Shown here piece by piece: positions 1-52,771 of a stretch of DNA of 64,000 nt. Source of the stretch: an uncultured Acholeplasmataceae bacterium. GTDB taxonomy: Bacteria; Bacillota_I; Bacilli_A; RF39; UBA660. The translations under genes were made by a program, and so were the position numbers. The stretch lies in contig CAJKWD010000001.1 in the NCBI GenBank assembly GCA_905203475.1, positions 15,599 through 79,598 on the forward strand, written 5' to 3'. Positions within the stretch are counted from its first letter, which is position 1. Every line of letters starts with the position of its first letter. The notes below the pieces were generated by a model. It searched no databases. It saw only the letters and a program-made list of their open reading frames with translations, and was not told where the DNA came from.

Positions 1-493
1 ACTGTGGAAAATATTCCAACATAGTATTCATATTATCATAAGAAACATATACATGATGACGGAATTTTTTCATTTTTACACGACGAAAAAACTTTTTCAT
101 CTCACGGACATTGCCGTTATAAAGCTGATAATAATTATTATGAATCCACAATGCATTTTCCTTTGATGCATTTAAAGCGAGATGTGCTCCAGGAATAGAA
201 TATGTAGCAAATGAAATCGCAAAATCATATTTGTTCTTATGTTCCATTTTCCATTTTATTAAATGAAGACGATTTTTTATCTTTCTTACCAGGACATTTT
301 TAGAATGATTCAATGGATATTCAATCACATGAATATGTTTTGGTAATTGTTCTAGAAAGATACCTTCCTTTTTTTCTAAAACTAATGTAATCTCATATTT
401 ATCTTGATCTAATACATGTAATAAATTCACTAATGCTTTTTCAATTCCACCTAAAGAAAGAGAATAAGCAGTAAAAAATATCTTCTTTTTCAT
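1..493 (-). CDS. Glycosyltransferase, GT4-like N-terminal domain. Partial: the ATG is at 491-493 and the 3' end lies beyond the window start.
   Basis: I translated the minus strand by hand: MKKKIFFTAYSLSLGGIEKALVNLLHVLDQDKYEITLVLEKK..., an open frame running to position 2. The GG-IEKA motif is typical of the GT4 N-domain. The start overlaps the stop of the upstream gene (ATGA). Confidence 0.55.
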   Translation of the reverse strand, partial: MKKKIFFTAYSLSLGGIEKALVNLLHVLDQDKYEITLVLEKKEGIFLEQLPKHIHVIEYPLNHSKNVLVRKIKNRLHLIKWKMEHKNKYDFAISFATYSIPGAHLALNASKENALWIHNNYYQLYNGNVREMKKFFRRVKMKKFRHHVYVSYDNMNTMLEYFPQ

Positions 494-1401: not shown

Positions 1402-2485
1402 CTAACAATTCTTTTAACTCTTCTAAAATAGAGGAATTGGAAAATGACTGTGTAACTTCCGCTCCATCTTTTTTTTCTATCATCTTCTCGATTCCTTCCA
1501 TAATACCATTTTCTGTATTTTCTACAACCATTCCTTTATCATAATTTACTAATACTTCTTTCGCTGCACTATCTGTAATTAATATATCTTTATTTAATAC
1601 TTTAGCTTCTAATAGCACCATAGGATAACCCTCGTAATAAGAAGCTAGTAAAAAAGTATCAGCATATTTCATATAAGGATAAGGGTTTTCTTTTTGTCCT
1701 AATAAAACAAAGGTATCTTCTAATCCATAGTCTTTTATTTTTTGTTGTAGCTCTGAGTGTAATGGTCCATCACCAATGATATAAATACGGTGCAATATGT
1801 TGTTTTGAATAAGTTGACGATGGACTTCTAATAATCTTAATACTGCTTTTTGTTCTGTCAAACGAGATACTTGTAAAAAATTTGGTAAATCATGTTTTAT
1901 TTCGGAAACAGTAAAGGCGTTGGCTTTTTCTGTAACAACGTGTTCATCGATATAATTGTAAATGACTTGTTTTGGAATTTGATTATGAGGAAAGATTTGT
2001 TCAAATTTTTGTAAATTATCTTGTGATACAAAAATTAATTTTTGATATTGTTGATAAGCATGTTCACTTAATTTCCTTTTCAAATAATGATGGTTATAAA
2101 CACAAATTAAATCATTATGAATCCATGCATATTTGATCGTTTGAGATTTACAACTCATAAGCCAAGTCATTGGTCCTTCCAAGAAGGCAATTTCTAAGTC
2201 GTATTTATTTTTTATATATTTTTTATAAATGTGATGGCGAAAAAATGGAAGTACAAACTGAAGAGAAAACCATATCTTTTTCCATTTTGGATAACTATCA
2301 TATGTATGTGGATAAAGAGATTGAAAATGAATTTTCTCATCTAATTGTTTTTCAAATTCTCCATCGCCATAGATTGAAAAAATAGTAATATCATAATCAT
2401 TTTTAAAATGATTTACGATATCAATTAAAACTCGTTCAGCGCCACCTGGTCTTAAACTCGTAATTCCGAATACTATTTTTTTCAT
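1394..2485 (-). CDS. GT4/GT1-family glycosyltransferase
   Basis: C-terminal EX7E-type motif YYEGYPMVLLEAKVLNKDILITD. Size is 363 aa. Confidence 0.75.
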   Translation of the reverse strand: MKKIVFGITSLRPGGAERVLIDIVNHFKNDYDITIFSIYGDGEFEKQLDEKIHFQSLYPHTYDSYPKWKKIWFSLQFVLPFFRHHIYKKYIKNKYDLEIAFLEGPMTWLMSCKSQTIKYAWIHNDLICVYNHHYLKRKLSEHAYQQYQKLIFVSQDNLQKFEQIFPHNQIPKQVIYNYIDEHVVTEKANAFTVSEIKHDLPNFLQVSRLTEQKAVLRLLEVHRQLIQNNILHRIYIIGDGPLHSELQQKIKDYGLEDTFVLLGQKENPYPYMKYADTFLLASYYEGYPMVLLEAKVLNKDILITDSAAKEVLVNYDKGMVVENTENGIMEGIEKMIEKKDGAEVTQSFSNSSILEELKELLGE

Positions 2486-3885
2486 GCAACCAACTCTTTT
2501 CTTTTTTCATTTAATAATAGAAATAAAATAGCAATGATAACCATGCATGAAACATGGAAGAATGTATAACCTGCCATCATGGATAATCCAAATGTTAAGA
2601 GTGTTCCAAACAAGTAAAAAGCATAAGTAGGAGTCACTTTTTTAAAATAACGGAAAAAGTCAATACAAGATAAAATAAATATGGCCATATAAACACCCAT
2701 GTACAAAATAAAGCCTAATATTCCAAAGTTATATAACATAGCAGGAACTTCCATTTCTAATGTCATTTCACTGTAATTTGCTAAATAGCCATTACCAAAT
2801 AATATACGTAATGGATTATGTTGCTCTTTTACTAAATATGTATGATATAAAAGTTGTTGAACTCTACGATTGGAATTGCTTAAATTCCATTGATTAGCAG
2901 TATGATACATATCTAGTAATGCCTGCTGTTGAGCATGATCCATAAAATGTTCATCCATTAATCCGTCCTCAATTTGATGAACATAATCTAAAGCATCACC
3001 AGTAATATGAGATTCTTCTTTGGTTGTTGTATCTACCACTTGGTTACTTTCTTCTTCTAAGTGTTTTTGGCGTTCTAATGTATTAGAGCCAAAAATAAAT
3101 ACGCCAATCCCAATAACAGCAATACAAACCATGGCGATTACTATCACTTTCTTTGAAATTTTCTGTCGCTTTTTAGAAAATAGAAGCATGCATAAAATAA
3201 AAGCAACAATCACAAGTGGAAAACCTAATAGTCCTACTCTTGTACCCAATAAACACATTAAATAAATACCTACTAATAAAGTAAGAAAAATTTGATGCTT
3301 CTTTTTTTCTTTCATAAATAGAGGTAATACAATGACTAAACATAATAATAAGATAGAGCCAACTGCGTTTCCTGATGAATTCCAACCTTTATAGCCAATT
3401 CCATCAATATAAGTGTGTGATGATGTTCCACTTAATACAGATACATATATAAGAGCAATATATCCCCATAAGAAATAAGAAACATATCGTGGAATATCAT
3501 TTAATTTTTTTTCTTGACGAAAGCGATACAAAAGGTAAAAGATAACCATCATATAAGTATAATTTAATAAATACTGTATTTCATGAAAAATGGAACCATA
3601 TGCACTATTTGTATGATAAACATAATAACAAATAGCATGACCCAGAGCATATAAGAAATAAATGAGGCCTAGCACAATCATTTTAATACGGTTTTGTTTT
3701 TCATGAAGAAATAAATAGACAAATAGAATGGTTGGAATTACTAATCTTAATAATACTGTAGGTGATACTGCTATATCTGGAAACCAATTGTGAAGTAGGA
3801 AACTAAAAGAGTCTAAAAAAGGAGATATGATTAAAAAAAGATAAAATAAATACTCTATTTTCCAATTTTCTTTTATCTTTTTCAT
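2482..3885 (-). CDS. Polytopic membrane protein, O-antigen ligase / Wzy-like polymerase candidate
   Basis: 467 aa with 10 or more hydrophobic helices and a large hydrophilic loop near the C-terminus. It is embedded between glycosyltransferase genes. Confidence 0.5.
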   Translation of the reverse strand: MKKIKENWKIEYLFYLFLIISPFLDSFSFLLHNWFPDIAVSPTVLLRLVIPTILFVYLFLHEKQNRIKMIVLGLIYFLYALGHAICYYVYHTNSAYGSIFHEIQYLLNYTYMMVIFYLLYRFRQEKKLNDIPRYVSYFLWGYIALIYVSVLSGTSSHTYIDGIGYKGWNSSGNAVGSILLLCLVIVLPLFMKEKKKHQIFLTLLVGIYLMCLLGTRVGLLGFPLVIVAFILCMLLFSKKRQKISKKVIVIAMVCIAVIGIGVFIFGSNTLERQKHLEEESNQVVDTTTKEESHITGDALDYVHQIEDGLMDEHFMDHAQQQALLDMYHTANQWNLSNSNRRVQQLLYHTYLVKEQHNPLRILFGNGYLANYSEMTLEMEVPAMLYNFGILGFILYMGVYMAIFILSCIDFFRYFKKVTPTYAFYLFGTLLTFGLSMMAGYTFFHVSCMVIIAILFLLLNEKRKELVA

Positions 3886-3888
3886 AAC

Positions 3889-4866
3889 TTACCTCCAACT
3901 CTTAGGAATGCGAAGAATGAGTTTTCCAAATGTGTGAAATAACTTCGCTGATAGATAATAAAAAGTACGATTCATATGTCTATAATAGCAATTACGAATG
4001 CCTTTTTTTGTCTTTAAAAATTTATTTTTCTTCCAATGAGGAAATTTCTCGTTTAATAAATCATAGCCTTCTTTTAAATATTGATTTCGTAACTCTTTAT
4101 CTTCTAAACTAGAAATACGATAAAAACTTCTTCCAAATATATAACGAACAAATACATATTCTATTTCGTCATGATATTTAGGAAGTAATTTATGTTGTTG
4201 ATAATATTCTAGTACGATATTTAAAATATCATATAGTTCTCTTACTCGTACATCTTGGGTATTAGCAATTGAATCATCTCTTTGAATATAGTGATAAAGT
4301 GGTTCTCTAACATAACCAATATTTTCTGTCCATGGTAATATTTCGTAACAAAAAGCAATATCTTCATAATGAAGTCCTACAGGAAACTGTAACTTTTTTT
4401 CTTTTACAAGCTCAGTTTTATATAGCTTATTCCATGCTGGTACACGAATATCGGTAAAATAATTGTCTTCGACATTAGAATGATCAATTACTTTACGATC
4501 AGGATATTCCCATATATAATCACATTCTACCATATCGTACTTTCCACGAATGGCTTCTTGATACATTTTCTCATACATAGTTGTCTCCACATAGTCATCG
4601 CTATCTACAAAAGCAATATATTCTCCTTTTACATGTGGCAAAGCATAGTTTCTCGCATCTGATAATCCTCCGTTTTTCTTTTTAAAAGGAATAACTCTTG
4701 AATCCATTTTCGCATACTTATCAATGATTTTCTGACTATTATCTTTTGTTCCATCATTCACAACAAGGATCTCAATATCATGTAATGTTTGATTAACTAA
4801 ACTCTCTAAACAACGTTCTAAATACTTTTCCACATTATATACAGGAACAATAATACTTACTTTCAT
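3889..4866 (-). CDS. Family 2 glycosyltransferase
   Basis: MKVSIIVPVYNVEKYLERCLESLVNQT...VVNDGTKDNS, a canonical GT2 N-terminus. Confidence 0.8.
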   Translation of the reverse strand: MKVSIIVPVYNVEKYLERCLESLVNQTLHDIEILVVNDGTKDNSQKIIDKYAKMDSRVIPFKKKNGGLSDARNYALPHVKGEYIAFVDSDDYVETTMYEKMYQEAIRGKYDMVECDYIWEYPDRKVIDHSNVEDNYFTDIRVPAWNKLYKTELVKEKKLQFPVGLHYEDIAFCYEILPWTENIGYVREPLYHYIQRDDSIANTQDVRVRELYDILNIVLEYYQQHKLLPKYHDEIEYVFVRYIFGRSFYRISSLEDKELRNQYLKEGYDLLNEKFPHWKKNKFLKTKKGIRNCYYRHMNRTFYYLSAKLFHTFGKLILRIPKSWR

Positions 4867-4879
4867 ATAATCATCCTAT

Positions 4880-5824
4880 CTATTTTGCAACTCGTTTCAT
4901 ATAAAAACATAAGTGATGTTTTACAAGATATCTTTTTATTTTACGTATGAGATTATCGTTTCTTAAATACTTCCATACTTCTCTTTTTTTCAATTCATCG
5001 GCAAACTCTTTTAAAGGTTGATTAGAAAGAGATTTTCCCTTAATGAATAAAGTATTTGTTAAATAACTCATAACATATTGTTTTTCTTCCATACTCAATG
5101 TTTTTAATTCTGTAATTTGTCTTTTTAAGACATCATACTGTTCTAATGTATCATTTGCTTTTTTAAGCAATTTTACATCATCATTCGAAGTCATAATACT
5201 ATTACTACGAACAATATAATAATATAGACAATCGGGAATCGATGATACTGTTTTTGCACATAATACAACATATGGCGTCAATCCATAATCTTCATGATAT
5301 TTGCCTTTTTGATATTGAAATTGATGTTCTAACCAGAATTCACGACGATAAGCATAAGACCAAGCAGTAACAAAATAAGAATCGGAAGATAATGTATAAA
5401 AGGCTTGCATACCTGTTTGCTTTGAAAAATTAGGCGCTTTCATCATCGTATCTTTTTCTTCTTGTAATATAAAACCAAAGTGAATCATATCTGGTTTGCT
5501 ATCAATCATAATTGTTTCTTCAATTGATTTTAAATAATCAGGAGAAACATAATCGTCACCATCAACAAATAATAGATAATCACCCGTTGCTTTACTTACA
5601 CCATAATTTCTCGCATCTGATAGTCCTCCATTTTCTTTTTGATATCCAAAAAAACGAGAATCTTTTTTTACAAACTCATCAATAATTTCTTGACTTTGAT
5701 CAGGACTACCATCATTGACAACAATCACTTCAAAATTTTCATATACTTGTTTTTGTAAACTATTTAAACACTGTCTTAAATATTTTTCCACGTTATATAC
5801 AGGAATTATTATACTAAATTTCAT
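4880..5824 (-). CDS. Family 2 glycosyltransferase, first gene of the glycan operon
   Basis: MKFSIIIPVYNVEKYLRQCLNSLQKQ...VVNDGSPDQS. It is paralogous to the 3889..4866 product. Confidence 0.8.
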   Translation of the reverse strand: MKFSIIIPVYNVEKYLRQCLNSLQKQVYENFEVIVVNDGSPDQSQEIIDEFVKKDSRFFGYQKENGGLSDARNYGVSKATGDYLLFVDGDDYVSPDYLKSIEETIMIDSKPDMIHFGFILQEEKDTMMKAPNFSKQTGMQAFYTLSSDSYFVTAWSYAYRREFWLEHQFQYQKGKYHEDYGLTPYVVLCAKTVSSIPDCLYYYIVRSNSIMTSNDDVKLLKKANDTLEQYDVLKRQITELKTLSMEEKQYVMSYLTNTLFIKGKSLSNQPLKEFADELKKREVWKYLRNDNLIRKIKRYLVKHHLCFYMKRVAK

Positions 5825-5887: not shown

Positions 5888-5911
5888 AAATAGTCACTAA
5901 AAAGTGACTAT
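5888..5911 (-). terminator. Rho-independent terminator downstream of the XRE-membrane gene
   Basis: 9-bp inverted repeat aatagtcac/gtgactatt overlapping the stop codon, followed by a U-rich tract on the minus strand. Confidence 0.45.
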
Positions 5912-7446
5912 TCCTGTAATAATGATTCTAAATTTTGTTTATAACTATTCAACTTATCTTGGTATTCTGTTACTTTAGATTCTAATTCACTATTTTGTTC
6001 TTCTAATTTTGTATTTTCTTCTGTAACTTGATCTAATTGTTCCTGTAAAGATTCAATCTCTGACTGTTCTTCTACTTCCATTTCACGTTTGATTGAATTA
6101 TGATAATGATCTAATAAACGATTTATATTTTCTTCACTAGCATACACTGTTACATGATATTGATATAACTCTGAATAATTATATAAATGTTTTTCTTTTA
6201 AACCATCTATGAATAGAGATACTGCTTTTGAAACAAATACATTTTCTGGATTTTCTTCGCGAACAAAAACAAATCCATTATCATGAGATACGATATCTAC
6301 ACTTAAATATTCTGGGAAGTATTTAACCACAATTTTAACTTCATCACCAAGCGTATTATCTACCTTCATATCATAAAAATCTAGAGAATCAATTACCAAA
6401 GAATCAGACATTGCAATTTTCTTTTCAATTGTTTTTGCTTTTTCAGTAATTGGTGCTTTATCAGTATATGTAGTATTTACAAATTCTAACATAGTGATTC
6501 CAAAAGAAATTCCTAGGCCAATTAAAGATACGATTGTCAAAATAACTGTTCTTTTGATTGGTGTTTTACGATTAAATAGAAAGTTAAATAATAATTCTAG
6601 AATGAGTATGTGAAGAATTATAGCAAAAATAATTCCCAATAATATTCCAAAGTGAAATACTCCTTGGAATAATAAAATAAACATGACAATAAATGCTGCC
6701 GAGAATAGAAATAGAGAAAGGGCAAATGGACATATTAAAATAAAGAAAACCATGATTTTTATAAAGAAAATAGCAATTTTACCAAGAGCTTCAAAAAAGG
6801 CATAGCTTTTTTCCGGTCTTATTTCTTTCATGACCTTTTGCTCTGGTATCAGTTCTACATCCTTACTATTTTTTTCTGTACTAGTTGATACAGATTGAAA
6901 ATCATAGCGATCTAAATACATCATTTTAAATAAATAAACTAATAATATGATATATAAGATAAAGAAACTACCATTTAATAATAATTCAATTAAGCCTATT
7001 ACAAAATAGATAAATTGATTGCTTCCTAAAGTAAGAATTAAATTAGTTAAACGATTACTTAAAAAGTCAAATGGAATATATCCTATCTGTAGTATGATAG
7101 CAACAACAAACATCACAAAAAGACATTTTATGCTCTTTTTTAATCCCATTGTATGAAACATATGATAAGTCTTGTTCACAAGATCTAACATGCTATCAAT
7201 TAAGTTATTGATACTATTCTTTTTCTTTTCTCCTATTTTAATATCTGTAATCTCATCGTTTGTTAAATCATCTAGGCTGCATTTAAATATCTTACACATA
7301 GCAAGTAATTTATCCATTTCAGGATATGTTTGACCAGACTCCCATTTCGATACAGACTGTCTTGTCACATCTAATAAGTCAGCAAGTTTTTCTTGTGACA
7401 TCTTATTTGCTTTTCTCAAAGCTTGTAGTTTTTCACTAAAACTCAT
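5908..7446 (-). CDS. XRE-family HTH transcription regulator fused to a polytopic membrane domain and a C-terminal coiled-coil
   Basis: N-terminus LQALRKANKMSQEKLADLLDVTRQSVSKWESGQTYP is a Cro/C1-type HTH. It is followed by about 8 hydrophobic helices. The C-terminal 60 aa are heptad-like and E/Q/L-rich. Confidence 0.6.
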   Translation of the reverse strand: MSFSEKLQALRKANKMSQEKLADLLDVTRQSVSKWESGQTYPEMDKLLAMCKIFKCSLDDLTNDEITDIKIGEKKKNSINNLIDSMLDLVNKTYHMFHTMGLKKSIKCLFVMFVVAIILQIGYIPFDFLSNRLTNLILTLGSNQFIYFVIGLIELLLNGSFFILYIILLVYLFKMMYLDRYDFQSVSTSTEKNSKDVELIPEQKVMKEIRPEKSYAFFEALGKIAIFFIKIMVFFILICPFALSLFLFSAAFIVMFILLFQGVFHFGILLGIIFAIILHILILELLFNFLFNRKTPIKRTVILTIVSLIGLGISFGITMLEFVNTTYTDKAPITEKAKTIEKKIAMSDSLVIDSLDFYDMKVDNTLGDEVKIVVKYFPEYLSVDIVSHDNGFVFVREENPENVFVSKAVSLFIDGLKEKHLYNYSELYQYHVTVYASEENINRLLDHYHNSIKREMEVEEQSEIESLQEQLDQVTEENTKLEEQNSELESKVTEYQDKLNSYKQNLESLLQE

Positions 7447-9457: not shown

Positions 9458-10264
9458 TTACTCCTTTACTATATGTTTTATTTTTTGCTTCTTCTTAGTT
9501 AAACGATATGCTTGTTCTTCTATTCCCTGTTCTACAAATTGATTGATTAAAACATCATTGCTGCTATTATATTTTAACCATTGATAATACTGCATCTTCT
9601 CATGTTGTAAGCGTTTTGGTGTAACGACTGCCCAATAAGCAGAGCTCATACAAGTCACATCATGGTGAAACATTCCAAATAAATAAGATAGTTTTTCACG
9701 ATTATATAACTTTTTTTCATGCATTTCATAATCCATGTTATCGTAGAAAATCTCGTTTGGTAGTTGTGGATAATAACGTATTAAAAACATAAAATCAGCA
9801 AAAATTTCATCCTCTTTTTGATAATATTCTGGATACGCTCCTACCATTTCTTCCACCATAAATTCAACATATAATTCTTGTACTCTAGAAAGATATGTAT
9901 CGAGAACAGTTTCTGTATTTAATGTAGGTGATATGACCAAATTACGATTTTGATACATCCAATTATATGCATCATAATAAGAACTAGAAACCAACTGTGT
10001 TTCGTAAACATACCATAAATTATCCCCACTAAGAAAACCATAAACAGATTCAAAATAAGTATTAAAATCAGCAGTTGGATAATATTCGATTGCTTTAAAA
10101 AAATACTCTTTTAAAACATAACAAAATTCCTCTTGATACTGACATGTAGCGTTCATTACAAATTGTTTTTGCAATTGTAACCAATATTGATATAAATCTT
10201 CTTTACGATTTTGTGATAAAGAAACATTTAAACCATTTAATTCTTCCAAAAATTCTTGTCTCAT
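9458..10264 (-). CDS. Hypothetical soluble protein, 268 aa, rich in aromatic and acidic residues
   Basis: Its start ATG overlaps the stop of the AbiEi-like gene (ATGA). A GGAGG RBS is present. There is no nucleotidyltransferase GS..D.D motif and no HEPN Rx4-6H motif. Confidence 0.5.
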   Translation of the reverse strand: MRQEFLEELNGLNVSLSQNRKEDLYQYWLQLQKQFVMNATCQYQEEFCYVLKEYFFKAIEYYPTADFNTYFESVYGFLSGDNLWYVYETQLVSSSYYDAYNWMYQNRNLVISPTLNTETVLDTYLSRVQELYVEFMVEEMVGAYPEYYQKEDEIFADFMFLIRYYPQLPNEIFYDNMDYEMHEKKLYNREKLSYLFGMFHHDVTCMSSAYWAVVTPKRLQHEKMQYYQWLKYNSSNDVLINQFVEQGIEEQAYRLTKKKQKIKHIVKE

Positions 10265-16412: not shown

Positions 16413-16440
16413 CCAAAAGAAAAAAGAGACTTAATCTCTT
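16413..16440 (-). terminator. Putative terminator after the SDR gene
   Basis: aagag-acttaat-ctctt hairpin overlapping the stop, followed by a U-run. Confidence 0.4.
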
Positions 16441-17183
16441 TTCTTACTTTGTATGCGATATGCGACTTTTAATAACAACTGATCAGAAGCAAAACGCGTT
16501 AAAAATTTACTTACTTTCATTGTTATTCCTGGAATAATAATCATCTTTTTATGGAGCATCTTTTTAATTGCATACTCAGCAACTTCTCTACTTTCTAATC
16601 CATTGAGTGCAAAAGATACTTTTGCAACTTTATTAAATTCGGTATTCACCGGTCCAGGACATAAAGCACCAATATAAACATGACTTTTACCTTTTCTTAG
16701 TTCTTCATGGATGGCCTCTGTAAATCTAAATACATATGCTTTCGTTGCATAATAAGTTGCCATAAGAGGTCCCGGTAAGAAAGCTGCCGATGAAGCAACA
16801 TTTAAAATATAACCTTTATCCTTCTTTTTAAAATCTTTTAAAAATAATTTTGTTAATGTATGAACAGATTTAATATTTAAATCAATCATATCTAATTCTT
16901 TATCTAAGTTTGTATCACTAAATTCTCCAAATAATCCAAAACCTGCGTTGTTAATTACAATATCAATATCTTTATCTTTTACTTCTTGATATAATTCCAT
17001 ACAATTAAATGTCGTAGATATATCCATAACAATACATTCTACATTGGTATTTAATTCTTTTTTTAAAGCTTGTAATTTGGTTTTTCTTCTTGCAACTAAA
17101 ATCAAATCATAGCCCATTTCACTTAAGACACGAGCCATATCTCTTCCAATGCCAGAACTGGCACCAGTTATTAATGCTAACAT
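16431..17183 (-). CDS. Short-chain dehydrogenase/reductase (SDR)
   Basis: MLALITGASSGIGRD Rossmann motif, NNAG, and the YYATKAYV catalytic YxxxK. The start is placed at the internal ATG at 17183, which has a perfect upstream promoter and a GGTGA RBS. The long N-terminal extension in the listed ORF is unlikely. Confidence 0.8.
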   Translation of the reverse strand: MLALITGASSGIGRDMARVLSEMGYDLILVARRKTKLQALKKELNTNVECIVMDISTTFNCMELYQEVKDKDIDIVINNAGFGLFGEFSDTNLDKELDMIDLNIKSVHTLTKLFLKDFKKKDKGYILNVASSAAFLPGPLMATYYATKAYVFRFTEAIHEELRKGKSHVYIGALCPGPVNTEFNKVAKVSFALNGLESREVAEYAIKKMLHKKMIIIPGITMKVSKFLTRFASDQLLLKVAYRIQSKKRD

Positions 17184-17238
17184 AGTATCACCATACTCAT
17201 TATATAATATTTTCTTAGGATATTCAACGAAAAAAAGG
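17184..17238 (-). promoter_or_regulatory. Terminator hairpin (aaaaaggc-tatt-gccttttt) plus a TTGAAT-17-TATAAT promoter for the SDR gene
   Basis: Read on the minus strand. The hairpin with its U-run follows the DUF2207 stop. A consensus -35/-10 precedes the SDR start. Confidence 0.5.
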
Positions 17239-19056
17239 CTATTTGCCTTTTTCACGATCTCTTTTTTCTTTTTGTATTTTAGATGTAGCATCTGCAATTT
17301 TAGTTTCTTCTTCAAAGTTTTTTTTCTTTTGATTTTGCTGTGATGGTTTACGGTGTTGATATTTTGGCATTTTATTCTCAGGAATCATAGATAATACTGT
17401 ATTAATAACTTCCATATAATATTCAAATAGTTTAGCAAACGATGATAATTCAATCTCATGATTAATCCATGTAGGTAAAACGATTTGATTATCTTGATTA
17501 TGACGAATCCACTGTTTTGAAACACCTAATACGTAAGCGTATGGTAAATATCCATAAAATTGTTCACTTGTTTTAGCTTGAGACTCTTTTAAATATCTAC
17601 GGAATCCTTCAATTTTACGGACAATATAAGAATGTTCTTGAAATCTTTTTTGAATTTCTTTTCCAAGGAATAACATGACTAACATCATAATAATACATAC
17701 TACATAAAACCAATTATATCGTAAGTCAGTAAAAGAATATAATACCATAATAGTAAGAGGTATAAATACTAGTATATAAGCAATCTGTTTTAAATATGGG
17801 ACAGAATGTTTGATAGTAAATAATAGGCAAATGATTGCGAAAAGTGTAAATAAAACACAGATAATGGAATCAGATAAAATTCCTATTACACTAAAGCAAA
17901 AACAAAGTTCTAAAGATAAAAACGCAAATAAAGTTAAACCATAAATTAAATAAAGAAGAAAGTAAGATTTCTTATCATATACTCTATCTTCTAAAGAACG
18001 ATTGTTTAATTGCTTTTTAGCATATGCTAATTTCGCATAAAATTTTCCTTTTAAGGAATCAATCATAACATGGTCTGATTTAGAAAATAATTGTTCGAAA
18101 ACATATAACTCAACATCGTCATCACTTACCATATTTTTTAGTTTTCGTAATTGAAATACTTTGCTATGATCTTTTTTAGTAATTTCTTCTATTTTTAGAA
18201 ATCCTCTGATAGCAAATGAAACAATATAAGAAGTTATTTCTTTATCTCCTGCCTCTCCTTTATAAATAAGACCTATTTCTGCCGGTGTTAAATCTCCTGG
18301 AGGGGTTTTTACATAAGGAGGACGTTTTACCTTTCTCTTAGCCATTAGATAGAGAATAAAGGCTATAATTAACATAAATCCAGTAAATAAGAAGAATAAA
18401 AGTGCATTAGTATGATAATTATTATGATCTTGATAAAAATAATGATTAGGAATTTCTGCGACAAAAGATAAATCAGATTGATTTTTAAACGTAGAAATAC
18501 TTCCCGTAATATGACCACCAGAAACATGATAGTCTATCATATTATCAGCAATCGACTCTTGATCAAACAACCATTGAAATTGATCTAAAGTTTTTAAATC
18601 TTCAAATTTAATATCAAAAGATAATAACTCAATATTTGCATAATCTTCTTTTTGCAATAATGGAATATATACAGTATTTCCTACTCCTTCAATACTAGAA
18701 AAACCGTAAACATAAGATAGCGTATAGGTTTGCTTTTTATCATTTATTTTTGCTTGTAAATACATTGCATCGCCAAAATTAGAATAACGGAAAGAAAGTG
18801 CACTTCCCTCAACGTCACTAATTTTAGCAAGTCTCTTATCACCAGACTGTGTTATAAAATAAAATGGTAATCTTCTAACAACAACACTTTCTCCCTGTCC
18901 ACTAACTTCTCCTGTTTCTACAACATATGCTCTACTGTCTTTCGTAATCTTTATTTGCAATGAAATATGTTTGTAATTAATATTAGAGTCTGCCTTTACT
19001 GATAGTGGAAACAAAAGACAAATACATAATAATACAATAACCCATCCCTTTTTCAT
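17239..19056 (-). CDS. DUF2207-type membrane protein: signal peptide, an extracellular domain, and a multi-TM C-terminal half
   Basis: MKKGWVIVLLCICLLFPLSVKA signal peptide. A TPPGDLTPAEIGLIY motif follows the first TM, as in DUF2207. Four or more further TM helices. K/E-rich tail. Confidence 0.55.
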   Translation of the reverse strand: MKKGWVIVLLCICLLFPLSVKADSNINYKHISLQIKITKDSRAYVVETGEVSGQGESVVVRRLPFYFITQSGDKRLAKISDVEGSALSFRYSNFGDAMYLQAKINDKKQTYTLSYVYGFSSIEGVGNTVYIPLLQKEDYANIELLSFDIKFEDLKTLDQFQWLFDQESIADNMIDYHVSGGHITGSISTFKNQSDLSFVAEIPNHYFYQDHNNYHTNALLFFLFTGFMLIIAFILYLMAKRKVKRPPYVKTPPGDLTPAEIGLIYKGEAGDKEITSYIVSFAIRGFLKIEEITKKDHSKVFQLRKLKNMVSDDDVELYVFEQLFSKSDHVMIDSLKGKFYAKLAYAKKQLNNRSLEDRVYDKKSYFLLYLIYGLTLFAFLSLELCFCFSVIGILSDSIICVLFTLFAIICLLFTIKHSVPYLKQIAYILVFIPLTIMVLYSFTDLRYNWFYVVCIIMMLVMLFLGKEIQKRFQEHSYIVRKIEGFRRYLKESQAKTSEQFYGYLPYAYVLGVSKQWIRHNQDNQIVLPTWINHEIELSSFAKLFEYYMEVINTVLSMIPENKMPKYQHRKPSQQNQKKKNFEEETKIADATSKIQKEKRDREKGK

Positions 19057-19075
19057 ATCTTCACCTACTAATAAT

Positions 19076-19104
19076 AGTATACAACAAAAACGAATGTTCT
19101 TGAA
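19076..19104 (-). promoter_or_regulatory. Putative promoter of the DUF2207 gene
   Basis: TTCAAG, 17 nt, TATACT. An AGGTGAAG RBS is present. Confidence 0.4.
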
Positions 19105-19109
19105 ATAAA

Positions 19110-19149
19110 AAATTAATTTAAAAAAAGAGTTATGACTTTTTCATAACTC
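19110..19149 (-). terminator. Rho-independent terminator after the 259-aa orphan gene
   Basis: 8-bp stem gagttatg/cataactc overlapping the stop, followed by U7. Confidence 0.55.
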
Positions 19150-19909
19150 CATTCATCACTTCATCCCATATATCAACATCTATTGGAACTAAAATATTCT
19201 CATTTAAAATATTTAAATTTTCATCTACATTTTCTTTCGTTGTGGTAAAAAGTTTTTCACCTTCTAATTGATCATACAGTTTTCTAATATATACTTTATT
19301 ATCGATGACATTTACAAATTCATAATTTGGACAATCAATATGAATATTAAAATCATCATCGCAGACAATACTACTTTCTAAAGATTGATGTAAAAAAGGA
19401 AGAGAACGTGTGGCATATCCGTTGTATATTTCTTTTTTCATACATTTTCCATTTTCATAAAATTCTAAATTATCTTTTTCTGCTTCTATATATCTAAATA
19501 AAAAACCTGGATATGTCTTTGTTTCATCATCATGAAATGTTTGTCTCTGCATTTCAACGTGTAATTTTTGGTCTTGATTACAATAACATTGAATCATTTT
19601 CGTATTTAAAACCGAATGTCTTTGATTGTCTTCATCCATAATTTTCTTAGTTACTCCATAATATAATTGACACTGCTCTTGATTAACTACATTGAACTTC
19701 AGATAGTAAAAACTATTATTATGATATGGTTGTCGGTTTGCTAAATTATCTTTTTGAAGTATATAAGTATTGTTAGTACATTCCATTTTTATATCTCCTG
19801 GAGCAAAAAAGAAGTTATGAATTTCCGTACATAATAAATTAAAAATTCTTAAGTTTGTTTGAATCACTGCTGGTATTTTTGAGATCAAAGTTTGTTCTAC
19901 GTCAGTCAC
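19130..19909 (-). CDS. Hypothetical cytoplasmic protein with no recognisable domain
   Basis: The open frame is listed from a TTG at 19924. A GTG at 19909 is the better start, with a GGGAGG RBS 7 nt upstream. The gene has its own promoter (TTGTAA-17-TATCAT) and terminator. It contains several Cys and His residues. Confidence 0.45.
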   Translation of the reverse strand: MTDVEQTLISKIPAVIQTNLRIFNLLCTEIHNFFFAPGDIKMECTNNTYILQKDNLANRQPYHNNSFYYLKFNVVNQEQCQLYYGVTKKIMDEDNQRHSVLNTKMIQCYCNQDQKLHVEMQRQTFHDDETKTYPGFLFRYIEAEKDNLEFYENGKCMKKEIYNGYATRSLPFLHQSLESSIVCDDDFNIHIDCPNYEFVNVIDNKVYIRKLYDQLEGEKLFTTTKENVDENLNILNENILVPIDVDIWDEVMNGVMKKS

Positions 19910-19969
19910 ATGAATACCTCCCAACGGTCAACATGATACTATAACAAGATAAATTTTACAAGTCTTTTC

Positions 19970-33019: not shown

Positions 33020-33763
33020 CTAATTTTCTTCTGTAACAGTTTCTTCTGTTACTTCTTCAGTAGTTTCTTCCACTGGTGTTTCTAGAGGTTTTTCTTCGTA
33101 TGAAACAAGTTCATCCATCTCTACTTTTTTACCTGGATTTTTTACAGAAGTCTTAATTGTAACAAGTGATTTCTTAGCTCCTGGTACATTTCCACTTACT
33201 AAGATAACATTGTTTTCAGTATCAACTGCAACAATTGTTAAATTTTGAATTGTAACAGTTTCAACTCCCATATGTCCTGGCAAGTTTTTACCTTTAAAAA
33301 CACGCATTGGTCTCATAGTTCCCATTGAACCTGGTCTTCTATGATAATGAGATCCATGTCCCATAGGTCCACGATTTTGTCCATGACGTTTAATAACGCC
33401 TTGGAATCCGTGACCTTTTGTTACTCCAGTAACATCTACTACTTCTCCTGGTTCAAAAATATCAACTTTAATTTCTTGACCTAAAGAATAGTTATTTACA
33501 TCTACACCACGAATCTCTTTAAAGAAGCGCTTAGGTGTAGTGTTTGCTTTATTGGTATGACCAATAGAAGCTTTTGTCGCTAGTTTTTCTCTTTTTGTTT
33601 CAAAACCTAGTTGAATTGCTTCATAACCGTCGTTTTCTTTTGTCTTAATTTGTGTTACCACATTTGGTTCAACAGAAATAACAGTTACAGGAATCAATTT
33701 TCCAGATTTTGTAAATACTTGAGTCATTCCAATCTTACGACCTAAGATTCCTTTCATTTCCAT
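33020..33763 (-). CDS. rplC: 50S ribosomal protein L3 with an acidic C-terminal extension of about 35 aa
   Basis: [15 protein letters not shown]. The tail reads [25 protein letters not shown]. Confidence 0.95.
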
Positions 33764-34087: not shown

Positions 34088-34249
34088 ATTGTATCCTCCT
34101 TTCGCCTATATCCAGTATAGACTTGCTCCGTTAGGAAAACCTGATAACCGGTTATTTTTATTTACAACTTAACCTGGTGTATCAGCAACCTCCCACATCA
34201 ACGCATGCCACACATTCAAAATTATACATGATAATTATATGAAAATCAA
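34088..34249 (-). promoter_or_regulatory. S10-operon promoter (TTGATT-17-TATAAT, at 34221..34249) and a 5' leader of about 125 nt
   Basis: Consensus sigma-A hexamers on the minus strand. The leader contains a GC-richer, structured segment. Confidence 0.55.
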
Positions 34250-34342: not shown

Positions 34343-34371
34343 TTTTCATTCCGGAAAAAATATGTTATAAT
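34343..34371 (+). promoter_or_regulatory. Putative extended -10 promoter (TGtTATAAT) for the K-rich membrane-protein gene
   Basis: The -10 lies about 22 nt upstream of a GGGGTGA RBS. Confidence 0.35.
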
Positions 34372-34393
34372 GGAGAAAATATGGGGTGAAAAT

Positions 34394-35308
34394 ATGAGTG
34401 AGAAAAATAAAGAAATAGCAAAGAAAAAAACGGATGCGAAAAAAAATACAAAAAGCGTTAAAAAAGCGGATAAAAAAAAGAAAGTTGCGACAACTAAAAA
34501 AGAGGTAAAACCCACAAAAAAAGTTGTAAAAATGGCAGATAAGAAAAAAAATACAAAAAGAAAAACTGATACTAAAAAAGCAACCACAAAGAAAAAAAGT
34601 ATATTTAGAAAAAAACGTGAAGCAAAATTAGTAATTCCGCAATTAGAACCATCTAAAGAAGTAGATTTTGATAAATACGAAGATTATATCGGTATCAAAA
34701 CACCTGATTGGCAAGAAAAGAAAGTTCAATTATTACAAGAACACGAATTACGTTTACAAGGAAAAGAAATCAGTGAAGAAATTGAAGATTCTAAAAGAGA
34801 TTCAAATCTTGCTTTGATTTTACTGGTTGCAATTGCCATTATTATATTATCATTTACTTTTGTAACCAACTTATATCGCAAAGAATTACAACGTCAAAAG
34901 AAAGAAACACAAGCATTGAATGAATTACAAGATACTACAAATGACGATGAAGAAATAGAAGAAGAGATTAAAACGCAGACAATGACGTGTACCACAACAC
35001 CAACACAAATCGAAAATTATCAAAGTTCTGTTTTATCTATTTCTACATTCGAAAACAATAACTTAGTTACTTACGAATACATTGTGACTAAAAAATATGC
35101 AGATCAAGGAAGTTATGACAGTGCAAAATTAGCAAGTCAAAATCAAAATGATATTATCTTTGATAACAATCAATTAACAATCAAAACATACTTTGGAAAT
35201 GGACATATAGAAAGTGTTCCTCAAGAAACAACTTATCTTGGTAAAACAGTTCAAGAGGTAAAAGCCCAAGAAGAAGCTGCTGGAGCAATTTGTACATTAA
35301 GTGAATAA
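34394..35308 (+). CDS. Lysine-rich (histone-H1-like KKxx repeats) single-pass membrane protein with a C-terminal extracytoplasmic domain of about 145 aa
   Basis: MSEKNKEIAKKKTDAKKNTKSVKKADKKKK... followed by the TM helix LALILLVAIAIIILSFTFV and a Q/N/T-rich C-terminal domain. The listed ORF starts at 34337, but the ATG at 34394 has an RBS. Confidence 0.6.
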   Translation: MSEKNKEIAKKKTDAKKNTKSVKKADKKKKVATTKKEVKPTKKVVKMADKKKNTKRKTDTKKATTKKKSIFRKKREAKLVIPQLEPSKEVDFDKYEDYIGIKTPDWQEKKVQLLQEHELRLQGKEISEEIEDSKRDSNLALILLVAIAIIILSFTFVTNLYRKELQRQKKETQALNELQDTTNDDEEIEEEIKTQTMTCTTTPTQIENYQSSVLSISTFENNNLVTYEYIVTKKYADQGSYDSAKLASQNQNDIIFDNNQLTIKTYFGNGHIESVPQETTYLGKTVQEVKAQEEAAGAICTLSE

Positions 35309-36084: not shown

Positions 36085-36375
36085 TTATTTTTCAATTTTT
36101 GTGATTAAATGACGAATTACATCATTGCTAATTAAAGCTAAACGATCAAATTCTTTGATTGCTGCATCATCATTTGCACTTAAAGTTAATACGTAATAGT
36201 ATCCACTTTTACATTTTTTGATTTCGTAAGCTAATTCTCTTTGCCCCATATCTGTTTCACCAGTAATTGTAGCTCCATGATTTGTTAAAACATTTTTGAA
36301 GTTTTCAATCACTTTTTTTGTGTCTTCTTCAGATAATGTAGGTCTTACGATAAACATGATTTCGTATTCTCTCAT
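36085..36375 (-). CDS. rpsF: 30S ribosomal protein S6
   Basis: [12 protein letters not shown]. The start is placed at the ATG with a CAAGGAGG RBS. Confidence 0.9.
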
Positions 36376-36430
36376 TTTTACACCTCCTTGTGGTCTAAGT
36401 GGCTTTTGATAACTCAAAAGCAAGGAGTAA
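36376..36430 (-). promoter_or_regulatory. rpsF 5' leader with an SD-sequestering stem, a candidate S6:S18 autoregulatory element
   Basis: ACUCCUUG ... hairpin cuuuuga-guua-ucaaaag ... CAAGGAGG pairing occludes the RBS. Confidence 0.35.
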
Positions 36431-36587
36431 ATTCATACTCGCTTAAGATTATAACAAATAATATGTAAATTGTAAACAAATTTTTCCTACATTCCTATTA
36501 TAAGCATAAAAATAATTGACATTTTTAAGTATATGTTTAGTTTTTTTGCTAAAAAATAAAAAATTATTATAGAATTTTCTATAATAA

Positions 36588-37685
36588 TTATACATTAAAA
36601 CGAAATAAACAAATATCCCCATCTTGCATAACATAGTCTTTTCCTTCAAGACGAAGTTTACCCGCTTCTCTAACTGCTTTTTCTGATTTCAATTCAGCAA
36701 AATCCTCATAACTCATAACTTCTGCTTTAATAAAACCTTTTTCGAAATCAGTATGAATAATACCAGCGCATTCAGGTGCCTTCATTCCTTTTTTAAAAGT
36801 CCATGCACGAACTTCATCTGTTCCCTCTGTAAAATAAGTCGCAAGTCCTAATAGAGAATATGTTGCACGTATTAGTTGATCAAGTCCACTTTCTTGTAAC
36901 CCTAGATCTTGTAGGAACAAGTTTTTATCTTCCTCTTCTAGTTCACTTAACTCTTCTTCTATCTTTGCACATACAACAATTACTTCTGCCTTTTCTTTTT
37001 TTGCATATTCTTTTACTTGTTTCACATATTCATTTTCTTCTAATATTTCCATTTCCTTGACATTAGAAACGTATATGATTGGTTTCATGGTTAATAAATT
37101 AAATGACTTTAATAATTTTAACTCATCTTCTGTATATTCTAACGCACGAGCTGGAATATTTTTTTCTAAGCTTTCTTTTATTTTTTTCATTAGATTCACT
37201 TCTAATAAAGTTGCTTTATCTTTCGTCATTTCTGCTTTTTTACCAAGGCGACCAAGTCTTGCATCAATCACTTCTAAGTCTGCTAAAATTAATTCTACAT
37301 GAATGATTTCAATATCACGTATAGGATCGATTTTTCCCTCGACATGGGTAATATTCCCATCTTCAAAACATCTTACTACTTCTACAATTGCATCGACTTC
37401 ACGAATGTGACTTAAAAATTTATTCCCAAGCCCTTCCCCTGTCGAAGCACCTTTTACAAGACCAGCAATGTCAGTAAATTCAAAAGTAGTTGGAATCGTT
37501 CTTGCTGGATGTACTAAATCTGTTAAAACATCTAAACGATGATCAGGAACTGTTACCACTCCGACATTTGGCTCTATTGTAGCAAATGGATAGTTGGCTG
37601 CTAGAATATGTTTTTTTGTAATTGCGTTAAATAAAGTAGACTTTCCAACGTTTGGAAGGCCCACAATTCCGGCTGTTAAACTCAT
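36588..37685 (-). CDS. ychF: Ribosome-binding ATPase YchF
   Basis: [18 protein letters not shown], and a TGS C-terminal domain. Confidence 0.95.
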
Positions 37686-41969: not shown

Positions 41970-41999
41970 TTCAAATAAAAAAGCAAGAACTTATCTTGC
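41970..41999 (-). terminator. Terminator after the lipoprotein gene
   Basis: gcaag-aacttat-cttgc hairpin followed by a U-run. Confidence 0.4.
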
Positions 42000-42410
42000 A
42001 ATTTTATATTCTACTTTTTTAGCACTCCTTAAATCTTCTGTTACATCTGAAATAATTTGTTTATTATCACCCGGTTCAATACTATCTCCAATATAACCAA
42101 GCGTTTCAATTAACAACTTATTATCTTTGTCATACAGGTTTATTCCAATATTAGTAAGAGTAATTGTCTGGTCTGTTGTATTTTCTACATTGGCAACAAT
42201 TTTACTAATACCATCCTTATATGTAATACTAAAACCAGAAATTTTTAATCCCTCTACTGTTTGATCATCTAATGTTGTTACCTTAGACTCTACTGTTTTA
42301 TTTTTTTCTTTTGCCGCTTCTTTCTTGTCACAACCACAACCTGTTACAACAAATAAAAGTGCCAATAGACAAACAAATAATTTTGAAAATTTTTCAACGC
42401 TTTTCCTCAT
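41991..42410 (-). CDS. Lipoprotein with no assignable domain
   Basis: The signal peptide ends in VVTGC, a lipobox. Confidence 0.65.
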   Translation of the reverse strand: MRKSVEKFSKLFVCLLALLFVVTGCGCDKKEAAKEKNKTVESKVTTLDDQTVEGLKISGFSITYKDGISKIVANVENTTDQTITLTNIGINLYDKDNKLLIETLGYIGDSIEPGDNKQIISDVTEDLRSAKKVEYKIAR

Positions 42411-50459: not shown

Positions 50460-50494
50460 TTTATCAAAAAAATACCAATATTATTTGGTATTTT
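50460..50494 (-). terminator. Terminator of metG
   Basis: aataccaa-tatta-ttggtatt hairpin overlapping the stop, followed by a U-run. Confidence 0.5.
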
Positions 50495-52052
50495 GATGAA
50501 TTTCTTCTAACTTCTTTTCTTTATCAATACGTGCAAACAATGGATGAGCCTCTCCTACAGTGATTGATTCTCCTAAACCATCAAATTGATCTAATGATGT
50601 AAAAGAAGTATTTGTTGTATTTAATTGTTCAAAAATAGATTGTGCAGTATCAGGTAAGAAAGCTTGTAATAATACCGCTCCATGACGAATTCCTTCTAAC
50701 AATAGATATAAAACATTATTCAATCTTTCCTTTTGTGATTCATCTTTTGCTAAAGTCCATGGGGTTGTCTCATCAATAAATTTATTACAACGTCTAAATA
50801 AATTAAATATTGCTTCTATAGCGTCGGCAACACGTAATTCATCCATTTTAGCAATCACTTCTTGTTTTGTATCTAAAATCGTTTTCTTAAATGATTCATC
50901 TAGTTCTGTATATTCTGTTGGAACAGTCACCGTTCCTTGAAAATATTTATGTGCCATACTTATTGTACGATTTACTAGATTACCTAATACATTTGCTAAA
51001 TCAGAATTAATTCTTTCTATTAACAATTCATAAGTAATAGTTCCATCACTTGCAAATGGAATTTCGTGTAATAAATAATAACGTACGGCATCTACTCCAA
51101 AATAACGCACTAAATCATCAGCATACATGATATTTCCTTTAGACTTACTCATCTTATCTTCACCCACTAAAATCCATGGATGGCCAAATATTTTCTTTGG
51201 TAGTGGTAAATCTAGAGCCATTAACATAATCGGCCAATAAATTGTATGAAATCTTAGAATATCTTTTCCAATTAAATGAACATCAGCTGGCCAATATTTT
51301 TTAAATTTCTCATCGTGATTTCCATGAATATCATACCCTAAAAAAGTGATATAATTACTTAATGCATCAATCCAAACATATACAACATGCTTTTTATCGA
51401 ATGTAACTGGTACTCCCCAGTCAAATGATGTTCTTGAAACACATAAATCTTGTAATCCAGGTTTTATAAAATTATTCATAATTTCATTTTTTCGTGCTTC
51501 TGGTTGTATAAAATCAGGATGTGTTTCAATATACTCTTCTAAACGCTTGGCATACTTGTCTAAACGAAAGAAATATGCTTCTTCACTTGCTTTTTTTACT
51601 TCACGACCACAATCCGGGCATTTCCCATCTACTAATTGTGATTCAGTAAAGAATGATTCACATGGGGTACAGTATAACCCTTCATATACCCCCTTATAGA
51701 TATCGCCTTGTTGATATAATCTCTCAAATATCTCAGATACTTTTTTCATATGTTCTTTGTCTGTTGTACGAACAAACTTATCATAACTCGTATTCATACA
51801 ATCCCAAATTTGGTGTACTTCTGAAGCAATTTCATCAACAAACTCCTGTGGATTTTTACCTGCTTCTTTCGCTTTTAATTCAATTTTTTCACCATGTTCA
51901 TCTGTTCCTGTTTGAAAATATACGTCATATCCTTCCAAACGTTTAAATCTTGCAATCGCATCTGCTAATACAATTTCATAAGTATTTCCAATATGTGGTT
52001 TTGCAGAAGTATATGCGATTGCTGTTGATATATAATATTTTTTCTTTTCCAT
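50481..52052 (-). CDS. metG: Methionine--tRNA ligase (short form)
   Basis: TAIAYTSAKPHIGNTYE HIGH region, KMSKS. The start is placed at the ATG with a GGAGTGAG RBS. The longer listed ORF would overlap dut by 62 nt. Confidence 0.9.
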   Translation of the reverse strand: MEKKKYYISTAIAYTSAKPHIGNTYEIVLADAIARFKRLEGYDVYFQTGTDEHGEKIELKAKEAGKNPQEFVDEIASEVHQIWDCMNTSYDKFVRTTDKEHMKKVSEIFERLYQQGDIYKGVYEGLYCTPCESFFTESQLVDGKCPDCGREVKKASEEAYFFRLDKYAKRLEEYIETHPDFIQPEARKNEIMNNFIKPGLQDLCVSRTSFDWGVPVTFDKKHVVYVWIDALSNYITFLGYDIHGNHDEKFKKYWPADVHLIGKDILRFHTIYWPIMLMALDLPLPKKIFGHPWILVGEDKMSKSKGNIMYADDLVRYFGVDAVRYYLLHEIPFASDGTITYELLIERINSDLANVLGNLVNRTISMAHKYFQGTVTVPTEYTELDESFKKTILDTKQEVIAKMDELRVADAIEAIFNLFRRCNKFIDETTPWTLAKDESQKERLNNVLYLLLEGIRHGAVLLQAFLPDTAQSIFEQLNTTNTSFTSLDQFDGLGESITVGEAHPLFARIDKEKKLEEIHQNTK

Positions 52053-52056
52053 ATTC

Positions 52057-52539
52057 TCACTCCTTATTCGTTGAACCAAATCCATAGGTTCTTTCTCTTT
52101 GAATTTCTTGTTCATCATTAACGGTTAAAAACTTTTGAAAAATACCTTGTCCAAAAGCTTCTCCCTTTTTTACAGTATATGTTTTATTACTAGTATTGTA
52201 TAGTGTAATTGAAAAATGGCCTTCATTTGTAGGGTTATTATAAAAATCACTATCAATAATTCCTACTCCATTAGACATCCGTACACCATGTTTAATTCCC
52301 ATACTACTACGAACATATAACATAAGAACTTCATCTGTTTCCATCTGTGCTTTCACACCTGTAAAAATTCTTTTTTGTTCCCCAGGTTCAATGGAAAAAT
52401 CATAGATAGCTTTAAAGTCATAACCAGCACTGTGCTTTGTACTTCTTGTTGGTAATTCATATATTTGATATGTTTCTTTATCATCTTTAAAATCTTTTTT
52501 AAATTGCTCAAAACTAATTTTTTCAAAACATCTTCCCAT
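52057..52539 (-). CDS. dut: dUTP diphosphatase
   Basis: SAGYDF motif I, VRSSMGIKHG motif II, GIIDSDF motif III. Confidence 0.75.
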   Translation of the reverse strand: MGRCFEKISFEQFKKDFKDDKETYQIYELPTRSTKHSAGYDFKAIYDFSIEPGEQKRIFTGVKAQMETDEVLMLYVRSSMGIKHGVRMSNGVGIIDSDFYNNPTNEGHFSITLYNTSNKTYTVKKGEAFGQGIFQKFLTVNDEQEIQRERTYGFGSTNKE

Positions 52540-52544
52540 AATTA

Positions 52545-52771
52545 CCTCCTAAAAAAAATCACATCCTAATATAAGGACGTGAAATACGTGGTACCACCTT
52601 AATTCATAGTCGAAACTACCTCTAGTTGTTAACAGGCACTACCCGTATCATCCTACTTATCGAATCATCAACTCCAGAACCATTTCCAGCTATTTCCTTT
52701 TATTCATTTCCACCATACATGAACTCTCTTTAAAAAATACTTTAGCCTTTCTTTCTTTCAACGTTTTTACA
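52545..52771 (-). ncRNA. T-box riboswitch leader, Met-specific, upstream of dut-metG
   Basis: The minus-strand RNA contains an AGAGAG element and a candidate specifier loop GGAAAUGAAU with an AUG codon. It has the conserved T-box sequence AAUUAAGGUGGUACCACG. A terminator hairpin cacgucc-uuauauua-ggaugug is followed by U8. Confidence 0.75.

Follow-up and report, generated by a model that had tools for sequence, protein, structure and literature searches.

In the window, by which we mean the whole 64-kb stretch of DNA analysed here, the S10 operon and the rpsR-ssb-rpsF genes are separated by a gene on the opposite strand, referred to below as the lysine-tail gene. Its start codon is the ATG at 34394 and its stop codon occupies 35306-35308 (ORF inspection). 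Between about 12.2 and 36.4 kb there is no other credible gene on the plus strand, as an earlier sequence-only reading had said of the ribosomal block; the remaining plus-strand open reading frames (ORFs) there overlap ribosomal protein genes. According to GC skew the gene lies head-on to replication, and its neighbours are co-directional. The neighbourhood includes parAB and ychF-rpsF-ssb-rpsR; a small predicted lipoprotein of 139 aa (41991..42410, minus strand; lipobox VVTGC, no Pfam match) adjoins parA. The GC content of the genome is 30%. The gene and its expression signals are as follows:

34343..34371, plus strand: promoter-like site, TTTTCA, 17-nt spacer and TG-n-TATAAT (extended -10), scoring 10/12 with TG in a consensus scan
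34383..34389, plus strand: Shine-Dalgarno (SD) sequence GGGGTGA, about 4-5 nt 5' of the ATG, kept at orthologous loci
34394..35308, plus strand: coding sequence of 304 aa plus stop, with 15 orthologs and dN/dS <1 in every segment
35307..35339, plus strand: terminator-like hairpin (11 bp) followed by U7, with dG -9.6 kcal/mol and z -4.8 (0/200 shuffles fold as well)

The extended -10 element (ATGxTATAAT) is kept in five of the six aligned lineages and also in L010. The terminator hairpin was missed by the consensus scan because its stem is AT-rich, and rpsR has its own terminator beside it. The lysine-tail gene is thus a real, self-contained, monocistronic unit with its own promoter, SD sequence and terminator.

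On the opposite strand, the promoter region faces the signals that precede rpsJ:

34221..34249, minus strand: rpsJ promoter-like site, TTGATT, 17-nt spacer and TATAAT, nearly invariant across lineages
34102..34209, minus strand: rpsJ 5' leader, matching the S10-Clostridia leader of Rfam (RF03136) with 32.9 bits (gathering threshold 35.1) and E 4e-5

The rpsJ leader is nearly invariant across the aligned lineages as well. Both promoters stand back to back, with about 95 nt between the -35 boxes, and the DNA between them is poorly conserved, so that no shared operator is evident. Of the divergent control region that the gene had been proposed to share with rpsJ, the divergent arrangement is real, but the sharing of an operator is not evident.

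The order rpsJ, opposite-strand lysine-tail gene, rpsR-ssb-rpsF is found at every ortholog with enough flanking sequence, down to 39% identity. In L022, whose contig has the rpsR side only, an extra HTH_3 gene is located between the lysine-tail gene and rpsR. Three sister lineages, with uL3 proteins 81-88% identical, carry unrelated, unannotated small genes in the slot between rpsR and rpsJ:

L013:3008-3352 and L014:3136-3444, minus strand: related proteins of 102-114 aa (SAIxxGYxL...TPAEQNxLGxWFMLxGQ...)
L015:2652-3275, plus strand: signal-anchored protein of 207 aa

Between the two conserved operons the slot itself is variable, and any argument from position to function is weakened accordingly. 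The location upstream of rpsJ, previously described as conspicuous, is maintained among orthologs, but not beyond them. The lysine-tail gene also forms the divergence trough of the locus, with 27-59% nucleotide identity over the promoter, the tail and the transmembrane (TM) region. The S10 operon is 97-100% nucleotide-identical between the lineages represented by metagenome-assembled genomes (MAGs; about 28.5-34.2 kb, compared with L001, L008 and L019), and the dS values of rpsJ, rplC and rplD between these lineages are 0.015-0.15. This low divergence could be due to codon-bias constraint or recombinational homogenisation. Identity on the other flank (35.3-41 kb; rpsR, ssb, ychF, parB) is 81-94% with dS 0.2-0.7, and the divergence of the extracytoplasmic domain of the lysine-tail protein exceeds that of the genome background only slightly. 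A hypervariable surface antigen in a recombination slot was considered and rejected, since the S10 baseline is abnormally low and dN/dS is below 1; for these reasons, and because the domain is near background, we claim only that the protein is fast-evolving. A second divergence trough (36350..36650, 58-62% identity with gaps) lies 5' of rpsF, between rpsF and ychF, and at that site sister lineages contain extra genes, e.g., Bax1-I, HTH_3 and NTP_transferase. The rplC gene (33020..33763, minus strand) encodes a uL3 of 247 aa with an acidic, disordered-looking C-terminal extension of ~35 aa. The acidic extension is also present in L010, L013-L015 and L019, and sister lineages commonly have uL3 forms of 239-260 aa. 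A strict co-occurrence of the extension with the lysine tail was dropped as a candidate, as sister lineages have the extension without the gene.

The encoded protein can be divided into six segments:

34394..34627, plus strand: disordered lysine-rich cytoplasmic tail, residues 1-78, with 41% K, net charge +28 over residues 1-80 and pLDDT about 30
34634..34669, plus strand: short cytoplasmic motif I-P-x-L-E-P-S-x-x-V-D-F (LEPS motif), residues 81-92, from the ortholog alignment
34703..34786, plus strand: charged cytoplasmic helix, residues 104-131, AlphaFold2 (AF2) model with pLDDT 63-70
34808..34867, plus strand: TM helix, residues 139-158, the sole hydrophobic segment (Kyte-Doolittle mean 3.1)
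34868..34972, plus strand: extracytoplasmic helical stalk, residues 159-180 (YRKELQRQKKETQALNELQ), and acidic/T-rich linker, residues 181-193, from the sequence and the AF2 model
34973..35305, plus strand: compact alpha/beta ectodomain, residues 194-304, bracketed by C199 and C300, from the AF2 model and conservation

There is exactly one strong hydrophobic helix, as had been noted from the sequence, and in the AF2 model it is part of a continuous helix of residues 137-180. A cytoplasmic tail, a membrane helix and an external domain had been read from the sequence in this order, and the total charge of the two sides (N side +21, C side -12) agrees with it, as do the signal-anchored distant relatives. 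A 138-residue N-terminus with 40 lysines is an implausible translocated segment in N-tail translocation. The predicted N-in/C-out topology (type II, single-pass) is well supported, albeit not proven, by the overall charge, the length of the tail and the architecture seen in relatives; the local flanks run contrary. In the window protein the charges next to the TM helix are reversed relative to the positive-inside rule (N flank -3, C flank +3), whereas the local flanks of more distant orthologs follow this rule. Neither the charge balance nor the architecture of the relatives places the lysine-rich tail outside the cell.

The N-terminus is extremely basic, as the sequence-only reading had stated: the first 70 residues contain 30 K and carry a net charge of +24. 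The best 70-aa segment of the protein has 31 K, compared to a median of 10 and a next-best value of 15 among the 84 ORFs in the window, in which the background K frequency is 9.3%. The basic part is shorter than the 125 aa or so that had been proposed, as it ends at about residue 78 and is followed by a conserved module (residues 79-138) that is net-acidic (about -7). In the full-length AF2 model residues 1-83 are disordered (pLDDT about 30). The KKxx and TKK repeats that had been described do not amount to true repeats: a tandem-repeat search of the tail (TRF) gave only 2.4 copies of a 12-nt unit, so that the tail is a low-complexity sequence. Tail length ranges from 30 to 80 aa across orthologs, whose tails do not allow residue-by-residue alignment and have 27-44% K and a net charge of +7 to +28. 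In nine lineages Ala accounts for 0-9%, Pro for 0-3% and Thr for 4-25% of tail residues, and S/TPxK motifs ([ST]Px[KR]) are absent from the tails. In pairwise NG86 estimates among close lineages, from which all dN/dS values per segment were taken, the tail is the least constrained and fastest-evolving segment (0.2-0.7). The codons of the tail also show a pattern: there are ten A-runs of 6-8 nt, AAG makes up 4 of the 33 lysine codons and is placed such that A-runs stay at or below 8 nt (permutation p=0.0006), and the same upper limit of 8 applies in all eight lineages examined. Since long A-runs make ribosomes slide (PMC4363877), this limit fits selection on a translated poly-lysine tract, against such sliding. 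Selection thus appears to act on the tail in such a way that charge is kept while sequence turns over, and the gene offers a small, clean example of selection on an intrinsically disordered polylysine tract.

The remainder of the cytoplasmic part and the ectodomain are much more constrained. Among close lineages dN/dS is 0-0.12 for residues 79-135, which comprise the LEPS motif and the helix, and 0.05-0.09 for the ectodomain. In the 15 sequences, which go down to 39% identity, no change is seen at P82, L84, E85, P86, S87, D91 and F92 of the motif, and the tail is always accompanied by this motif among orthologs. In one lineage a tandem paralog is encoded directly 3' of the ortholog (L007:1088..1714 and L019:3179..3799); it has the charged helix (DWEKRKKELLDEYH...), the TM helix and the Cys-bracketed domain, and is devoid of both the lysine-rich tail and the LEPS motif. 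As the paralog retains the rest without either of them, tail and motif together appear to be an accessory cytoplasmic module of the orthologs and not part of the family core.

The C-terminal 139 residues are rich in T, E, Q and N and carry a net charge of -13. The Q/N/T-rich composition of the external part had been recognized correctly, but the proposed single domain of about 145 aa consists of the stalk, the linker and a 110-aa domain. Modeled by itself from a 19-sequence alignment, this domain yields seven strands and three helices (pLDDT 96.1, pTM 0.85). Across 19 sequences with identities as low as 23%, C199, K290 and C300 never vary, and a putative C199-C300 disulfide may connect the first and last strands. 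Many Tyr, Asn, Gln, Asp and His residues are invariant in the 15 aligned homologs, and the conserved surface that they form may suit a putative glycan ligand. A Foldseek search with the full-length model gave 2mvb (Streptococcus pneumoniae NP_344732) and 2joe (Escherichia coli YehR) as best matches. These are small extracytoplasmic alpha/beta domains that likewise start near a cysteine, and their final helix and strand take up corresponding relative positions in the alignment. However, the YehR/DUF1307 proteins are lipoproteins, whereas the lysine-tail protein lacks a lipobox (C199 is preceded by T-M-T, 40 residues past the TM helix and 198 residues from the N-terminus) and is anchored by the TM helix 40 residues upstream. 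With the confident domain-only model the matches to these two structures were non-significant (E 0.88 and 6.5, TM 0.45-0.46), hhalign against E. coli YehR gave a probability of 0.2, and Pfam found no DUF1307 match in any of nine members at E<=10; the YehR/DUF1307 lead was not borne out by these comparisons. The N-terminal domain of MltC (DUF3393) was the best match in a PDB profile search (E 0.085 over 32 residues), and hhalign gave a sub-significant probability of 40% over 37 columns. This suggestive likeness spans 32-37 residues over a helix and hairpin ('FDDxxLTIxTxxG'), stays below significance and is limited to one third of the ectodomain; MltC structures are absent from the top 50 Foldseek matches of the domain model. 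Fold searches of the domain against the PDB and against the viral BFVD gave no significant match, and the C-terminus (...AAGAICTLSE) has neither an LPXTG motif nor a hydrophobic segment. The ectodomain is an unclassified small extracytoplasmic module of a small unnamed family, with no name and no solved or annotated relative, and hence a reasonable candidate for a new Pfam entry.

Fifteen homologs align over their full length, all unnamed and all from metagenomes or MAGs. When 1.84 billion cluster representatives were scanned exhaustively with an HMM, only 18 proteins were recovered; a second word-indexed profile search added no further members, and none of the cluster members carries a name. 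Scans with Pfam, NCBIfam, PHROGs and PADLOC gave no family match; weak Pfam matches (DUF4179 and others) cover the TM segment only, and anti-sigma domains (zf-HC2, RsgI_N) are without a Pfam match. Copies on phages or plasmids were not found, the PHROGs and PADLOC scans being likewise blank. Distant relatives (23-31% identity) have only the Cys-to-Cys domain in common with the lysine-tail protein. Their domain always follows a low-complexity linker and stands behind a 12-residue N-terminus with a signal anchor, a signal peptide or a multi-TM module; the signal-anchor and signal-peptide N-termini argue that the Cys-bracketed domain is outside the cell. No common theme emerges from their neighbours, among them a CHAP/dockerin protein, an HTH_3 regulator and ftsY/ylxM. 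One candidate relative, the 4372-aa DUF11 repeat protein P0019, was rejected as a spurious repeat match, and P0025 is a copy of an ortholog that is either frameshifted or chimeric. The lysine-tail gene is carried by uncultured 'Tenericutes/Mycoplasmatota/Bacilli' MAGs, one of them a closed chromosome of 1.26 Mb in which the copy (L008) is about 95 kb from the start of the record, and the metagenome copies from the contig scan come from human-gut assemblies. The protein, which is fast-evolving, was found only in a few uncultured gut bacteria with small genomes.

We tentatively regard the lysine-tail protein as a lineage-restricted, bitopic protein that acts as scaffold or sensor in the envelope and bears a generic polycationic tail, and assign this reading a probability of roughly 0.45. 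Its architecture and conservation pattern are observed, and the constrained core would consist of the IPxLEPSxxVDF motif and helix, the TM helix and the 110-aa ectodomain; ligand, partner and tail target we infer. The outside domain would bind an envelope or environmental ligand, and the conserved inside motif would recruit a cytoplasmic partner. The lysine tail is a disordered polycation in which charge, not sequence, is probably under selection. Most likely it secures the N-in orientation, and by non-specific electrostatics it would keep the docking motif at anionic surfaces such as inner-leaflet lipids and possibly RNA. The tail would be an accessory of the orthologs and not a specific DNA-binding module of the H1/HU type. 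Non-specific binding of polyanions by a tail with a charge of +28 is physically plausible. Several observations run against a scaffold or sensor: the ectodomain has no family or fold match that assigns a function, the immediate TM flanks of the window protein are contrary to the positive-inside rule, and the synteny with ribosomal operons in all orthologs could point to a translation-related role.

An architecture of this kind is familiar from MapZ (LocZ) of streptococci. There, a single TM helix connects an ectodomain with a disordered cytoplasmic region, and the latter includes membrane-binding segments and a conserved stretch to which a partner binds (PMC7055233, PMC4931243). Both proteins are bitopic with N-in/C-out orientation and have a long disordered cytoplasmic region with one short conserved stretch, a stalk and a small extracellular domain. 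They differ in that there is no Pfam, NCBIfam or sequence relation and no MapZ structure among the Foldseek matches, and the cytoplasmic region of MapZ is not polylysine. The likeness is an analogy of architecture only, with no implication of FtsZ or peptidoglycan binding. The architecture is thus familiar, the family and the ectodomain are unnamed, and the combination of polylysine and LEPS module is specific to a small clade. If the reading as an envelope scaffold or sensor is true, the protein is one more lineage-specific envelope protein of uncultured but widespread gut bacteria.

Among the alternatives, the one that survives best, though we consider it unlikely, is a tail with no function beyond topology: a slippage-prone, AAA-rich expansion that serves as a positive-inside determinant, while all of the biology is in the ectodomain. 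In a genome with 30% GC, the ten A-runs of 6-8 nt, the rapid turnover of tail length and sequence and a paralog that does without a tail are all in line with such an origin. Mere expansion fits less well with a lysine content of 27-44% in every ortholog, compared to a background of 9%, or with the constant pairing of tail and LEPS motif and the non-random codon placement, and 30-80 aa far exceeds what topology needs.

Less probable still is that the tail tethers ribosomes or RNA to the membrane by binding rRNA or an acidic ribosomal surface, such as the uL3 extension encoded two genes away. There are precedents: the basic tails of Alb3, YidC and Oxa1 bind ribosomes, with Alb3 binding to an acidic extension of uL4c (PMC8733628), and YqjD-type proteins tether 50S subunits to membranes (bioRxiv 10.1101/2024.08.16.608256). 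A net charge of +28, the ~35-aa acidic extension of uL3 and a gene that is always wedged between the S10 operon and rpsF-ssb-rpsR speak in favour of such a tether. However, the extension is equally present in sister lineages with unrelated slot genes, so that there is no co-variation, and the supposed binding element is the least constrained segment of the protein and absent from the paralog. The gene is also divergent, on the lagging strand, and not co-transcribed with the ribosomal protein genes. YidC2, Oxa1 and Alb3, as well as YqjD, ElaB and YgaM, have in common with the lysine-tail protein a disordered, positive cytoplasmic extension on a membrane protein (PMC8733628; bioRxiv 10.1101/2024.08.16.608256). 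Unlike the former it has no insertase core, and unlike the latter it has no DUF883 and a TM helix that is central (139-158 of 304) instead of C-terminal, with a C-terminal part of 146 aa that is an ectodomain; Pfam gave no match to DUF883 or the YidC family. Little is known of proteins outside the YidC and YqjD families that tether ribosomes to membranes. A more elaborate version, which we think improbable, would make the protein a membrane-anchored factor of a new kind, a ribosome tether or hibernation-like, in gut Bacilli with reduced genomes: the tail would capture ribosomes, perhaps via the uL3 extension, the LEPS motif would contact a ribosomal or translocon partner, and the ectodomain would report the state of the envelope or environment, thereby coupling surface conditions to local translation. 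This function would then be the reason why the gene keeps its place at the head of the S10 operon.

Very improbable, in our estimate, is a nucleoid-membrane tether, in which the tail would bind DNA like the C-terminal domain of histone H1 and anchor the origin-proximal part of the chromosome. The neighbourhood with parAB and ychF-rpsF-ssb-rpsR is of an origin-proximal type, the L008 copy is about 95 kb from the start of the closed 1.26 Mb record, and the lysine density is high. The C-terminal domains of H1 have a composition dominated by Lys, Ala and Pro. The resemblance to these domains and to bacterial H1-like or HU-tail proteins, as put forward in the sequence-only reading, comes down to disorder and a lysine content of about 40%: the tails are without S/TPxK motifs, poor in Ala (0-9%) and Pro (0-3%), Thr-rich and membrane-anchored, and there is no HU fold. 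HU/IHF domains (Bac_DNA_binding) gave no match in Pfam or NCBIfam even at E<=10, nor was any other DNA-binding domain found, and the tail is not conserved in sequence, varies from 30 to 80 aa in length and is missing in the paralog. The proposal that the protein tethers nucleic acid found no positive support, its tail being the fastest-evolving segment and absent from the paralog. Tethering of ribosomes or DNA by the lysine tail is a possible but improbable role that no evidence gathered favours; if the tail did tether ribosomes or the nucleoid, the protein would matter much more. A chance ORF in AT-rich intergenic DNA, suggested by nothing but the low-complexity 5' part, is refuted by a reading frame that is kept through indels in orthologs down to 39% identity, a domain dN/dS of about 0.05, an AF2 domain model with pLDDT 96 and the gene's own promoter, SD sequence and terminator.

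Elsewhere in the window, two regions on the minus strand encode proteins with little or no family assignment: 5908..7446 a 512-aa protein with only an N-terminal XRE-type HTH and about 450 unassigned residues, and 9458..10264 a 268-aa aromatic-rich protein without family match. The rplQ gene is separated from the ecfA genes by three non-ribosomal genes (16431..19924, minus strand), whose products are a 264-aa protein without family match, a DUF2207 membrane protein of 605 aa and a short-chain dehydrogenase. A surface-polysaccharide cluster at 490..5824 (minus strand) encodes a membrane protein resembling Wzy/O-antigen ligases along with four glycosyltransferases. A T-box leader (RF00230, 108 bits) is present at 52570..52770 (minus strand), 5' of the methionyl-tRNA synthetase gene at 50481..52118.
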